Positions 2,693 through 11,480 of a DNA stretch of 37,960 bases are shown here, one piece after another; within the stretch, counting starts at the first letter, position 1; every line of letters begins with the position of its first letter. Source of the DNA: a virus (Duplodnaviria; Heunggongvirae; Uroviricota; Caudoviricetes); the IMG/VR virus record IMGVR_UViG_2588253749_000006; one strand, 5' to 3'. The notes under the pieces are model-generated. The model was not told where the DNA came from, made no database searches, and saw only the letters and a program-made list of their open reading frames with translations. The position numbers were made by a program, and so were the translations under genes.

Positions 2693-2789
2693 AATTTAAT
2701 TCTCCTCTGTTTCCGGCGTGCAGAAGCCCACGGCGCTGACGCCGGAATAAAAAAGAAAATGTTTTTATTAAATAATTAACGTGGTGTGT

Positions 2790-3320
2790 TTACTGCACAT
2801 CCTGCTCAAAAGGAATTATTGAAAAATCCTCAATATCACTTTTTATGGTAATACCGGGAATATTTTTCACGGCCTCTTTTTCATTCAGAATGGCATCTTT
2901 ATTTATTTCCTCTTTTACACGAATAAAGCGCTCAAGCCCCAGACGTCTCAGTAGTTCAATAACATTATCCGCTCCACGGATACTGACTGATGGCGGACGG
3001 TTTCGCCACTGCACCTCGCCGGTGGTGAGGTTAGCGAACTTCACCTTCCCGTTGCCGGTCAGTTCATCACGGTGTGCCTCACACCATGTCTGAATACCGG
3101 ACTGCAGTTCGGCCATGCGTTTTTTTAGGCTCTCGGTGAGCGGGGCATAACGTGCGGTGATATCGCCAATGGCGTCATTCATTTCTGTTTCAGCCCTGAC
3201 CAGTTCACGTTGTGCGTCACCGAGCAGTCTGATTCCCTCAATGACCTCTTCGCGTGTCCCCGGTACCCAGAGTGCCGCTGCGGACTTGATACGTTTTGCC
3301 CCTTTTGTACTTTTTGCCAT
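2790..3320 (-). CDS. gam: Gam host-nuclease inhibitor (Mu Gam family)
   Basis: 176 aa; extended similarity to Mu Gam as I recall it (KRIKSAAA ... ETEMNDAI ... WCEANRDELT ... SVSIRG ... GLERFIR ... EDFSIIPFEQ). Confidence 0.85.
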   Translation of the reverse strand: MAKSTKGAKRIKSAAALWVPGTREEVIEGIRLLGDAQRELVRAETEMNDAIGDITARYAPLTESLKKRMAELQSGIQTWCEAHRDELTGNGKVKFANLTTGEVQWRNRPPSVSIRGADNVIELLRRLGLERFIRVKEEINKDAILNEKEAVKNIPGITIKSDIEDFSIIPFEQDVQ

Positions 3321-8041: not shown

Positions 8042-8130
8042 TGTTGTCTCCTTTGTTGATGCAATGATGTTTGTTTTATATGTGATAGATTATGAGAACT
8101 ATTGTTCTCATTGTCAATGAGGTTTATGTG
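8040..8130. promoter_or_regulatory. divergent early/repressor control region with operator-like palindrome
   Basis: Short AT-rich gap between divergent ner-like and repressor genes; perfect inverted repeat TGAGAACTATTGTTCTCA at about 8093..8110. Confidence 0.4.
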
Positions 8131-8553
8131 AATTTTGATTCTCTTTGCGCGTCGCGGTTCAAAGCTGAGCGTTCGCGGTTATCACTCAAGCAGGCTGAAG
8201 TAGCAGCCCTTTGTGGCGTTTCAAGAGAAATGTGGGGGAAATATGAACGAGGGGTTGCAGTTCCCGGAGGTGAGTTACTTGCAGCCTTTGCAAGAATTGG
8301 GGCCAACGTACAGTTCATTCTTACTGGGGAATCATCAGGTATAACTTTATCACGTGATGAAATGGAGTTACTTCAGCACTACCGGCAAGCACCGTTACAA
8401 GTCAAAGGTTCAGTTTTGTCGGCATTGACGACTGGCTCCTCCAGAGAACGGGCGGAACAGGTTATTCATGGAGATGTTCTGGGGAATGTTATCAAAGGTA
8501 ACGTAACCATAGGAACAGGTGGAATAATGAACAAAAATACAAAGAGAAAATGA
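8092..8553 (+). CDS. XRE-family HTH repressor (immunity repressor candidate)
   Basis: HTH LSLKQAEVAALCGVSREMWGKYERG; divergent from the ner-like gene; true start may be the GTG near 8128 because the annotated ATG overlaps a palindrome. Confidence 0.65.
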   Translation: MRTIVLIVNEVYVNFDSLCASRFKAERSRLSLKQAEVAALCGVSREMWGKYERGVAVPGGELLAAFARIGANVQFILTGESSGITLSRDEMELLQHYRQAPLQVKGSVLSALTTGSSRERAEQVIHGDVLGNVIKGNVTIGTGGIMNKNTKRK

Positions 8554-9556: not shown

Positions 9557-10048
9557 ATGGGGCTAATTAAACGATATAGAACAGATTATCCGAACCAAGT
9601 ACATCAACTTTCTGTTGCTGTTTCAAAGCATTATTATGCGGGAGTTGATGGATTGCTTAAGTACCAGAAAAAACCATTTGATATAAAACTTAGCAATGCA
9701 AGTAAAACTGGAAAAGATCATTTACTAGTCTATTCGTTACGCGATCACTACAGTGGTTTGTTTTATATAGAATTGGCATTTCTTTCTACACCACAACCTA
9801 TAACAGCTTTTTTGGGAAGGGCATGGAGGCCAAAGGAAGATAACGTGTTACAGGGTCTTCCTGATATGCTGATGATCCCCAAAACTGTAGAAGATGAGTT
9901 CCCTAACGTATGTAATGCCGTTTATAACCAAGGAGTTGATCTTTTAAAAGTAACCAGCGGTTTTCAGAGTGGAGGGCTTATCGCCATACGAGCGGTAGAG
10001 GAAGATCTTAAATTCTACACAAATACTCCTATAGCACGAGTTTCGTGA
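9557..10048 (+). CDS. unknown protein, second gene of the repressor-linked cassette
   Basis: 163-aa ORF 20 bp after the previous gene; AT-rich; no recognisable motif. Confidence 0.5.
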   Translation: MGLIKRYRTDYPNQVHQLSVAVSKHYYAGVDGLLKYQKKPFDIKLSNASKTGKDHLLVYSLRDHYSGLFYIELAFLSTPQPITAFLGRAWRPKEDNVLQGLPDMLMIPKTVEDEFPNVCNAVYNQGVDLLKVTSGFQSGGLIAIRAVEEDLKFYTNTPIARVS

Positions 10049-10339
10049 GGTTGCGGTTAAAACATGCAGATACAATGCTAATGATATCGCCCGAACCAAT
10101 AAAGAAACAAAGCAAGAGATGTGGTTACGAAACGTCGGTCAGATAGATATACCTTCTCCAGATTTTTGAAACCTGAAATCACGGTGTCGACGGTTCATTC
10201 TGACGCATCATTTATTCTCGTCAGTTGCCTCATATTCGTGCGTGCTAGGAAACATCGGCCAGAATATGTCTGGCATGGCGGCGTTTACAACCAATCCATG
10301 GAGCGATGGGGAATGTCTGCATTTTCATAATCTGTAACC

Positions 10340-10470
10340 CTTTTATAATTATAAAAAATATGGCAGGCTAGTCTGGTCTCGCGAGACTGACTGAACCTCG
10401 GTCGGCTCACAGTGCATTCCTGTGGGGCGATGACCAGCCCGGAGTTCGGGTACCGGGCTGGTCGTTCTTT
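10340..10470 (+). ncRNA. candidate small structured RNA (promoter-like TATAAT, two hairpins, T-rich tail)
   Basis: Palindromic TTTTATAATTATAAAA, then GTCTCGCGAGAC palindrome, then an 11-bp perfect stem GACCAGCCCGG/CCGGGCTGGTC followed by GTCGTTCTTT, inside a 530-bp gap. Confidence 0.2.
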
Positions 10471-10578
10471 CACTGTCAGAGTTCAGAGTGAAGTTTTGAG
10501 ATACATGATTTCTATTAACGCGATTTACTGGATGCATTACCTACGTGCAGTGTTTGTTCGATAAGGATTGTTTTCTGA

Positions 10579-11154
10579 ATGGGAACGTATTACACACTTG
10601 ATTCCGCTAGTCGTCTGCCTTCGCCTTGTCATGTAATTACCGGAAAATACGAGCCTGAAATGCCAGAACTGGCCGCTTTTCTTCATCAGATGTATCCCAA
10701 TGGCCTTTCGAGTCACGGGTATAACTATCTCTATAACCCCGGCCCTAAAATGGAAGATGACAGTGGAATCAGCAGAAGTCTGCTGGTCGGTCTGGTGTTT
10801 GAGTTAGTTCGCCGTAGCCATTTTCCTGATAAACCTTCCCGCTATCAGTCACTGTTTGCCTGTCAGCATCTGAGTGAAGTCAGGAAGTTCAGGGAATTAC
10901 TGGCTGATGAGAGAGGCGAAGACGAAATAAGAACGGCACCGATATATGAAGTCATCACAAATGAGCAGGTGCATCGCGGAGATATGAGGTTATTGAACAG
11001 TGATTGCCCGGTGCTGGAACTGTATCACCGTGCTTGGCTTTACTGGTCGGGTGAAGCAGCCCCAGTTAAGACTGGTGAGGACGAACCGTTCTGGGAACTG
11101 CTGATTCCGCTTCCAGTATTCGTTGGTCGAAGGATAACTGAATCGCAGGATTAG
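10579..11154 (+). CDS. unknown protein (accessory region)
   Basis: 191-aa ORF with an upstream AAGGA. Confidence 0.5.
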   Translation: MGTYYTLDSASRLPSPCHVITGKYEPEMPELAAFLHQMYPNGLSSHGYNYLYNPGPKMEDDSGISRSLLVGLVFELVRRSHFPDKPSRYQSLFACQHLSEVRKFRELLADERGEDEIRTAPIYEVITNEQVHRGDMRLLNSDCPVLELYHRAWLYWSGEAAPVKTGEDEPFWELLIPLPVFVGRRITESQD

Positions 11155-11389
11155 GTGCGGTTTTATATCGTGATGTCGCCGCCACATCGCCAATTAGCAT
11201 GACGTTGTTTTCTCCGCTGGCGAAATGACTTCTTCTCTCTTCAAGTGCAACCAGAACGTTTTTCAGCTCTATAATCGCTTCGGTTGGACAACATGCATCC
11301 AAGCTTAGCGTGTAAGTTTTATTCTGCTCTCCGATTCTGCTCCCAAAGAGGAACCCTTTTTTAATACCAGACTGTTTCGGTTCAGTCAT
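11066..11389 (-). CDS. unknown protein convergent with and overlapping the 10579..11154 gene
   Basis: Internal Met MTEPKQ with GGAGG RBS; 3' end overlaps the convergent gene by about 89 bp. Confidence 0.4.
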   Translation of the reverse strand: MTEPKQSGIKKGFLFGSRIGEQNKTYTLSLDACCPTEAIIELKNVLVALEERRSHFASGENNVMLIGDVAATSRYKTAPNPAIQLSFDQRILEAESAVPRTVRPHQS

Positions 11390-11454
11390 TGTGCTTGCCT
11401 CCCCTATGTTTTGTGTGCGACCATTCTGGTCGCTTCCCTCTGCGAACACTTATA

Positions 11455-11480
11455 ACGCGCTTTAAAATCCGTATCCCGCC
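11455..11480 (+). promoter_or_regulatory. candidate late-promoter activator site upstream of the lysis cassette
   Basis: GCTTTAAAATCCGT about 45-60 bp upstream of the first lysis gene; the same motif recurs near 24826 and 32932. Confidence 0.4.

Follow-up and report, generated by a model that had tools for sequence, protein, structure and literature searches.

A predicted antisense RNA gene facing phage dam genes and its apparent orphan copy in a BcepMu-like prophage of E. coli

What occupies the 530 bp that separate the last accessory open reading frame (ORF) from the DUF2441 gene in the viral record IMGVR_UViG_2588253749_000006, a stretch of 37,960 nucleotides (nt) to which we refer in its full length as the window? 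A sequence-only reading had described this interval as a non-coding gap containing an AT palindrome with an embedded TATAAT and two hairpins, and it had proposed a small regulatory RNA of about 110 nt belonging to the immunity-proximal accessory region or, equally, a terminator of the repressor operon or a remnant recombination site. Our comparison with related phages retains the RNA and assigns it a different partner. With a probability of roughly 60%, we regard positions ~10365-10472 of the plus strand as the gene of a structured antisense RNA of ~110 nt, which would belong to a widespread and unannotated family placed head-to-head with dam, the gene of a DNA adenine methylase, or with com, and which would be an orphan in the window.

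The description of the gap as non-coding could not be maintained, since it holds the 3' end of the upstream ORF (10049-10169) and a remnant of dam on the minus strand (Table 1). The homology of this remnant to intact dam ends near 10248, with the rest of the gene being replaced, and positions 10248-10472 of the window share 80-92% DNA identity with the 5' end of dam and the region upstream of it in ~530 E. coli genomes, in PhiKM and in KP12. The protein encoded by intact dam matches PF02086 and TIGR00571 and is a member of the Dam family that is far from E. coli Dam. As judged from these alignments, dam appears to have been deleted from the window except for 27 codons, with the RNA gene left as an orphan relic.

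Across related prophages the structure is conserved, in 42 distinct close variants and in a wider diverged family. The 146 nt-long core of the element is found in 555 of 5426 complete E. coli genomes, with no annotation under the match among the hits listed, and scans with the exact core identified 69 true loci in many genera of the Enterobacterales, which comprise the 42 distinct sequences. The genes of these relatives are arranged in the order repressor (plus strand), hypothetical gene (plus), dam (minus) and element, and the region past the element contains either DUF2441, or holin directly, or two minus-strand ORFs; the element thus appears to stay with dam while its downstream neighbours change. 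The ~115 nt past the position of the AT palindrome are more conserved than the coding sequence of dam, and the 5' 75 nt of the element are almost invariant among enterobacterial copies. Small ORFs or other coding sequence were ruled out for either strand, as loop indels of 1-2 nt break the frames and the lengths are 123-126 nt. A copy from Pantoea with a different end, which had been considered as a natural 5' boundary, carries an IS630-type insertion in a decayed prophage. In this locus of Pantoea stewartii (L057, 5690-6000), the TA that precedes AGTCTGG of the element is the exact insertion point of the IS630-family transposase, and an IS66-type element is found past DUF2441.

A consensus calculated with RNAalifold from the 42 variants resolves the element into three units, SL1, SL3 and SL4. 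The components listed by the sequence-only reading are all present in the window, including the perfect 16-nt AT palindrome TTTTATAATTATAAAA with TATAAT at 10344-10349, the GTCTCGCGAGAC palindrome at 10376-10387 with its arms AGTC (10370-10373) and GACT (10389-10392), which forms part of SL1, and a perfect GC-rich stem of 11 bp with a 10-nt loop contained in SL4, which is followed by the T-rich GTTCTTTCA at 10464-10472. To the two hairpins recognized in this way, a third one of the same ~110-nt unit has to be added, which was overlooked and whose strands CTCACAG/CTGTGGG constitute the core of SL3. The loop of SL3 varies in both sequence and length among the 42 variants, and compensatory changes have occurred at five pairs of SL4 in these close relatives, where every half-change results in a G-U pair on the plus strand. 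Over all variants, 99.6% of the cells are paired on the plus strand compared to 78.1% when these pairs are transferred to the minus strand. In the window, a plus-strand segment of 119 nt starting at 10356 folds with an energy of -52.9 kcal/mol (z = -3.4), and none of 200 shuffled sequences was as stable.

The search for covariance models gave a divided result, as Rfam contains no match whereas a model built from the relatives, termed R1, recognizes both the window (138 bits over 10353-10476) and diverged phages. R1 was obtained from the alignment of close relatives and searched on 80 viral contigs, which were selected solely for carrying a Dam homologue that is 63-94% identical to that of KP12. 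Full-length matches were found in more than 50 of the 80 loci, each immediately 5' of dam and encoded on the other strand, and several of the remaining loci, upon inspection by eye, also carry the element, which is always located opposite dam or opposite a com-like gene preceding dam. Matches in named phages include Vibrio VP882 (49 bits), Burkholderia phiE125 (38 bits), Shewanella MuM16-1 and Pseudomonas B3. SL1 of the diverged members retains its hairpin in spite of a wholly different sequence, with compensatory changes in all 10 inner pairs, and in the wider family all 7 pairs of SL3 and 14 of the 15 pairs of SL4 covary, with compensatory changes at 34 of 38 pairs. Paired cells amount to 90.9%, as opposed to 70.5% after shuffling and ~40% with the partners slid. 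On the element strand of the diverged members, 264 G-U cells are found next to 50 A-C cells, and a comparison of folding energies that does not depend on an alignment favours the element strand over the dam strand in 47 of 49 members, with a mean difference of 9.9 kcal/mol (Wilcoxon p = 4e-9). Collectively, these comparisons point to an RNA transcribed from the strand opposite dam as the bearer of the conserved and covarying structure.

The genomic contexts of the wider family are diverse, with the element being located after the portal gene, after baseplate or tail-fibre genes, after gpD or after Rz/Rz1. In contexts that include P2-like and lambda-like ones, the RNA is usually convergent with the late gene before it (portal, tail or lysis) and thus cannot be a 5' untranslated region, and the element appears to travel with dam as a cassette. 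In a subset of loci, which comprises many non-enterobacterial members, a Com-type zinc-ribbon gene (PF10122, E = 5e-14 to 6e-19) is placed between the element and dam, and no com gene was found in the window or in the enterobacterial BcepMu-like copies. In phage B3, the match to R1 (1194-1318) overlaps two tiny ORFs on the opposite strand, ORF45 and ORF46 (43 and 26 amino acids; L151 1067-1292), which are probably spurious calls over the RNA gene. Dam homologues lacking the RNA element (L111, L113, L137, L139, L145 and L146; ~2800-3000) instead show clusters of GATC-containing repeats upstream (TGATCGATT, TGATCAGT, CGATCAAG), which suggests that this gene family is also controlled in another way, one sensitive to methylation.

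Two long-range helices extend this description, one on each strand. On the element strand, the 3' strand of SL1 ends with ~10 nt (CUGACUGAAC, 10387-10396 in the window) that pair with the ~10 nt past SL4 in a helix termed P0. The tails are varied (GCUCCC, GCCCUC, GCUGUC, GCACCGUC, GCUCUU and GUUC, the latter in the window) and always match their partner, with cognate pairs showing an energy of -9.5 kcal/mol compared to -5.3 kcal/mol for non-cognate pairs and none of 2000 permutations reaching a value as low; 40 members favour P0 on the element strand and 4 on the other strand. In the modelled structures the tail mimics the 5' strand of SL1, which would allow for two mutually exclusive folds.

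The second helix concerns the start region of dam. The box X' (AAGGCUUACAG), which is located between the Shine-Dalgarno (SD) sequence and the AUG of dam, repeats, on the other strand, the sequence found in the 5' arm of SL3. Y' (CUGUGAGCC, the complement of 10404-10412) therefore pairs with X' on the dam strand, in a long-range helix that encloses the complement of SL1. Matched variants are found on both sides of this helix (CUCACAG, CUUGCAG, CUCACGG, CUUACGG and GAGAUCGUG), cognate combinations are more stable than shuffled ones (-12.1 compared to -9.8 kcal/mol, 0 of 2000 permutations as low) and the helix is part of the minimum-energy fold of 42 of the 49 leaders. It relies on G-U pairs that exist on the dam strand only, where the duplex is stronger in 34 of the 49 members, with a difference in the E. 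coli group of -15.2 on the dam strand compared to -7.9 kcal/mol. Since Y':X' covaries, the leader of the dam mRNA would begin no less than ~95 nt upstream and run across the element, and the plus-strand RNA would consequently be a cis-antisense RNA to this leader. The resulting constraints on both strands would explain the near-invariance of the enterobacterial copies. In com-bearing members X' coincides with the ribosome-binding region of com, and it is com rather than dam that is targeted by the helix. In the window, X' carries a change from GTAAGCC to GTAACCC that is confined to the dam-less lineage and leaves the X':Y' helix at -11.8 compared to -15.9 kcal/mol, which fits a relaxed constraint on a dead target. 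That the RNA tail might pair around the start of dam was also considered; this pairing is perfect in KP12-type copies (UGAAAGAAC), and its covariation across the family is not significant (p = 0.07).

The promoter assigned to the RNA by the sequence-only reading did not withstand the comparison, because the AT palindrome and its TATAAT are specific to one lineage and most relatives carry TTTTGCAATCAGTGAAAAT at this place. In alignments of relatives, the perfect palindrome is found in the window lineage only, where it was created by a single substitution. The hexamer at the position of TATAAT is TACAAT in PhiKM-type copies (9 of 12 consensus matches) and TGCAAT, TACAGT or TACTGT in most others, and the one change from TACAAT to TATAAT provided the window lineage with both a near-consensus promoter 10 nt upstream and the palindrome. 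In contrast, a -10-like box is found family-wide in a profile of 49 distinct members anchored on AGGCU at the base of SL1, and it ends 6 nt before the A of this sequence, which predicts a transcription start at 10365. A sigma-54 promoter in TGGCAGGC was discarded, as its -12 element does not fit when read from the sequence. At the other end, SL4 was classified as terminator-like on the plus strand in the window and in KP12 by a consensus scan, and in many members the U-rich run follows the strand of P0 instead of SL4. The core idea, a ~110-nt plus-strand RNA whose structured body ends with a terminator-like hairpin, is supported by comparative evidence, namely strand-specific G-U pairs, heavy covariation, the -10-like box, the U-rich run past the 3' structure and the convergent contexts. 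Its assignment as an accessory small RNA of the immunity region has to be replaced by that of an RNA antisense to the leader of a Dam-family methylase gene of phages, which is deleted in the window.

In a mechanism consistent with these features, the leader helix Y':X' would keep translation of the methylase off by default, and the antisense RNA would modulate translation by pairing with the leader. Our best guess, in analogy to counter-transcribed RNAs (ctRNAs) such as CopA, is that the RNA represses dam or triggers cleavage by RNase III in the lysogen, with the alternative being an activation of dam by freeing its ribosome-binding site. The tail might compete with the 5' strand of SL1 for the same partner, and this competition could couple the termination or the activity of the RNA itself to target pairing. 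In its most extended form, this proposal describes an undescribed and widespread two-strand control module for anti-restriction adenine methylases, composed of an anti-ribosome-binding leader helix and an antisense RNA acting as conformational switch, a tentative idea to which we assign somewhat less than even odds. As a mobile cassette, such a module would move among Mu-like, P2-like, lambda-like and N15-like temperate phages across Proteobacteria. The RNA gene of the window would be a relic that is possibly still transcribed from its near-consensus promoter, and the terminator-like 3' end of the RNA would, as a by-product, now be located downstream of the repressor-side accessory operon.

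Several observations weigh against the assignment as antisense RNA gene. Both the RNA and its overlap with the dam transcript are known from sequence comparison and predicted folds, and a single observation, the covariation of Y':X', underlies the length ascribed to the dam leader and likewise the overlap. Most members are devoid of a convincing -35 element for the RNA promoter, and consensus scans did not locate a promoter of dam. The U-run is short and interrupted (UUCUUUCA), with a C breaking the tail, and many members contain 6-8 nt other than U, corresponding to the 3' strand of P0, between SL4 and the U-run, whose frequent separation from SL4 makes simple intrinsic termination at this hairpin uncertain. 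The alternative pairing between the tail and the 5' strand of SL1 is not accounted for by an antisense function. The direction of regulation is a guess guided by analogy. In the window the cis target is dead, which renders a present function of the RNA there doubtful. Finally, the alignment of the family (A4) was fitted to the model and favours its structure, and the sequences are phylogenetically related, so that the counts of 0 in 2000 permutations are not true probabilities. The strand folding energies, the permutations of P0 and of Y':X' and the minimum-energy folds of the leaders serve as controls for the bias of A4 that depend little on the alignment.

Among other explanations, a stand-alone RNA acting in trans, which would be encoded on a dam moron and use its conserved 5' part to regulate host or other phage mRNAs with the link to dam reflecting co-inheritance, appears unlikely, even though it survives best. 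It would be in line with the near-invariant 5' 75 nt of enterobacterial copies, with the persistence of an intact RNA gene and an improved -10 element in the lineage that lost dam, and with the terminator-like 3' end. The wider family, however, preserves the pairing of SL1 and not its sequence and thus offers no conserved seed, and the near-invariance in enterobacteria is explained by the constraints on two strands. Moreover, the window contains no meaningful complementary target, as a repeated 10-mer, CTGACTGAAC, is a same-sense string coding for Leu-Thr-Glu, the C-interrupted tail is a poor U-tail of the Hfq type, and there is no conserved single-stranded seed throughout the family.

Rather improbable is the view that only the RNA of the dam strand is functional, as a cis-regulatory 5' leader of dam or com with no antisense RNA being made. 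The fixed position of the element immediately upstream of the start codon of dam or com and the dam-strand-specific helix Y':X' with its masking of the ribosome-binding region are expected for such a leader, for which the D12-methyl motif, a candidate cis-regulatory RNA upstream of D12 methylase genes, would be a precedent. They leave unexplained why SL1, SL3, SL4 and P0 all pair better on the opposite strand in each of the comparisons described above (99.6% vs 78.1%; 264:50; 47/49; 40:4) and why this strand carries a -10-like box at a fixed distance upstream of SL1. A leader would in addition be at odds with the lack of a matching Rfam family on either strand.

A terminator or insulator, which would keep transcripts of the repressor-side operon or transcripts antisense to dam from entering the lysis genes and render the upstream hairpins incidental, is slightly less probable still. 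The terminator-like classification of SL4 in the window and in KP12, the location downstream of the plus-strand accessory operon in the window and, in BcepMu-like prophages, just upstream of a CTATTAACGCGATTTA motif that is shared with the region upstream of holin would all agree with such a role. Yet a plain terminator requires neither SL1, SL3 and P0 nor ~75 nt of conserved or covarying structure. As terminator of the repressor operon, one of the alternatives of the sequence-only reading, the hairpin fails family-wide, since the minus-strand dam gene of relatives separates the hairpin from that operon, and the hairpin of P2-like, lambda-like and B3-like phages points against late genes with nothing downstream to protect.

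The 6S RNA of phage lambda, in the arrangement PR'-6S RNA-tR', lies ahead of holin. A comparable leader of a late or lysis operon had been considered on account of the holin gene that directly follows the element in some BcepMu-like prophages, and it was ruled out as PhiKM-type copies contain two intervening minus-strand genes and the RNA of P2-like, lambda-like and B3-like phages is convergent with late genes.

An element acting at the level of DNA, such as operator palindromes or a site of recombination or packaging, is highly improbable, since its perfect palindromes and its place at a module boundary with swapped downstream genes (next to the portal gene in some P2-like phages) contrast with half-changes that are systematically G-T on one strand, with an SL3 loop that varies in length and sequence, with an SL1 whose sequence is replaced while its pairing is kept and with the occurrence of the same element in transposable, cos-type and lambda-like phages; of the remnant recombination site suggested by the sequence-only reading, only the deletion scar adjoining the element, where dam is cut at ~10248, remains.

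Table 1. Positions of the features described in the text. Coordinates refer to the window except in the last two rows, where they refer to the named loci.
Feature	Position	Strand	Description
Repressor-like gene	8092-8553		Rightward; followed by two accessory ORFs and then the gap
dam (DNA adenine methylase) remnant	10245-10328	minus	ATG 10328-10326; 27 codons (MKMQTFPIAPWIGCKRRHARHILADVS, then stop)
Lineage-specific sigma-70-like promoter	10322-10349	plus	TTTTCA-16-TATAAT; 10/12 consensus matches; -35 overlaps dam start codon
dam translation-initiation region	10329-10345	minus	SD-like AAAAGG and conserved box X'
Box X'	10332-10340		GGGUUACAG in window, GGCUUACAG in relatives; plus-strand reading CTGTAACCC at the positions given
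AT palindrome TTTTATAATTATAAAA	10341-10356		Not conserved; in dam leader = antisense-RNA promoter region
Family-wide -10-like box	10354-10359	plus	Consensus T[A/G]AAAAT; AAAAAT in window
Predicted antisense RNA gene	10365-10472	plus	~108 nt; ~117 nt if counted from lineage-specific TATAAT
SL1	10366-10398	plus	Stems GG/CC, AGUC/GACU, GGUCU/AGACU; CGCG loop; corresponds to GTCTCGCGAGAC palindrome with arms; RNAalifold consensus
SL3	10401-10431	plus	Core CUCACAG/CUGUGGG (10406-10412/10420-10426), up to 12 bp with G-U; hypervariable loop
SL3 5' strand Y	10404-10412	plus	GGCUCACAG; same sequence as dam ribosome-binding box X'
SL4	10429-10466	plus	Long GC-rich hairpin, 15 bp in consensus; includes 11-bp stem 10432-10442/10453-10463
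Pyrimidine tail	10464-10472	plus	GUUCUUUCA; first bases can pair with SL1 3' strand (P0), remainder U-rich run
DUF2441 gene	10579-11154		Directly past gap; lysis genes next
com-bearing loci L088, L096, L098, L106, L108, L114, L117-L119, L136, L138, L144, L092, L132	~2700-3000
com-bearing locus L151	1334-1519		com between element and dam in this and the preceding row, as in phage B3 ORF47/48

By its sequence, the window is a BcepMu-like transposable prophage of E. coli. The query region is 100% identical to a prophage in E. coli strain 503025 (NZ_CP025892), which adjoins ybaV and encodes Mor, Gam, a transposase, Ner-like and helix-turn-helix repressor proteins, holin/SLT and Mu-type head genes, and the nearest named phage is PhiKM, which is classed as Bcepmuvirus. 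The early operon of the window is located on the minus strand and runs leftward. On the other side, the accessory ORF preceding the gap (9557-10048) is cut off by an insertion of 1 nt near 10040 (GTTTCG compared to GTTCG in NZ_CP025892), and its copy in NZ_CP025892 runs to the equivalent of 10169 and encodes 203 amino acids. The ~120 nt of the gap at 10049-10169 would therefore be the frameshifted coding tail of this ORF, or they reflect a sequencing error. Just past the stop codon of the full-length ORF, at 10200-10224, an inverted repeat CTGACG...CGTCAG with a 13-nt loop may serve as weak terminator of the repressor-side accessory operon. The motif CTATTAACGCGATTTA / CTTATAACGCGCTTTA is found at 10512-10527 and 11449-11464, upstream of DUF2441 and of the holin gene, with 0.14 matches of CTATTAACGCGATTTA expected by chance, and versions of it are also located 3' of the element in PhiKM and AF22, whose downstream genes differ; it may constitute the core of a late, Mor-dependent promoter that was duplicated by insertion of a moron. 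A minus-strand ORF at 11066-11449 (internal start ATGACTGAACCG at 11390) overlaps the 3' end of DUF2441, and its counterpart in relatives is annotated as 'hypothetical protein' (L005 3225-3548).

With respect to described RNA families, a search of the whole window with the 4227 models of Rfam 15 at gathering thresholds gave no match, and at E <= 10 the region 10000-10650 showed chance-level matches to miRNAs and snoRNAs only. No match of the D12-methyl type was found on either strand, at gathering thresholds for the whole window and at E <= 10 or E <= 1 for the gap and 12 diverged loci. The model ctRNA_pGA1 (RF00236) matches two diverged loci with 35.6 (L089) and 29.2 bits (L084), both below its gathering score of 45 and restricted to SL3-SL4, and it has no match in the window or in 10 other loci. 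A tRNA, tmRNA or att remnant was rejected, with ARAGORN detecting 0 genes in the window. Literature searches with sequence strings and for BcepMu small RNAs, D12-methyl, com/mom and VP882 antisense RNAs retrieved no description of the family.

Phage DNA-modification enzymes protect the DNA of the phage from restriction and can harm the host. If true, our assignment would add a layer of RNA to the control of these enzymes, which is so far known mainly from Com and mom of phage Mu. The element is common, with copies in every tenth complete E. coli genome, ST131 among them, and in the model phages VP882, phiE125 and B3, and it is annotated in none of the records examined. With a structure supported by covariation at hand, it would supply a new family of the Rfam type. 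The window itself is more modest, as a decayed dam locus whose antisense RNA gene would have survived, and it is thus the family revealed by this instance, rather than the instance, that is of real interest.

The closest parallels are the antisense RNAs of the counter-transcribed type found on plasmids, CopA/CopT and the Inc RNA of IncI plasmids. As in the element, these are small untranslated RNAs with multiple hairpins placed opposite the leader of their target gene, which end with a GC-rich hairpin and a U-rich tail, and the target leader contains a long-range structure involving the ribosome-binding site. They differ in their target, which is a replication initiator instead of a phage DNA methylase or com, and the element contains an additional 5' hairpin, SL1, and the covarying alternative pairing of tail and SL1. 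Phages encode cis-antisense RNAs of their own, such as lambda OOP and P22 sar, which contain one or two hairpins and act in immunity or antirepressor circuits. Similar to what is predicted here, these are short phage transcripts that end at a hairpin and are fully complementary to an mRNA of the opposite strand, but they are simpler, are not known to involve a methylase and no similarity to the element was found in either sequence or model. The D12-methyl motif is a candidate cis-regulatory RNA upstream of adenine methylase genes of the D12 class. It resembles the element in adjoining a D12/Dam-class methylase gene upstream, and it differs in being located on the same strand as the methylase.

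The regulation of mom by Com in phage Mu, in which a translation-inhibition stem is combined with Com as zinc-finger activator, bears a different kind of resemblance. There, as predicted for the family described here, a modification gene that protects phage DNA is silenced by RNA structure over its ribosome-binding region. In a subset of the family, a Com homologue (PF10122) is located directly upstream of dam as in B3 (PMC3299994), and the presence of com upstream of a methylase was already noted for B3 and for Mu-like prophages that carry promiscuous adenine methylases in place of mom (PMC3299994). Expression of mom is harmful and tightly controlled, and the same applies to the methylases replacing it (PMC3299994). 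The systems differ in the enzyme, which is Mom in one case and a Dam-family methylase in the other, and in the absence of com from the window. They also differ in the nature of the inhibitory structure, which in mom is a local hairpin, whereas the occluding strand of the family is located ~95 nt upstream, with a structured RNA on the opposite strand. What would be new in the family, as far as its sequences tell, is thus the combination of a cis-antisense RNA with a translational leader structure that is attached to phage DNA-modification genes.

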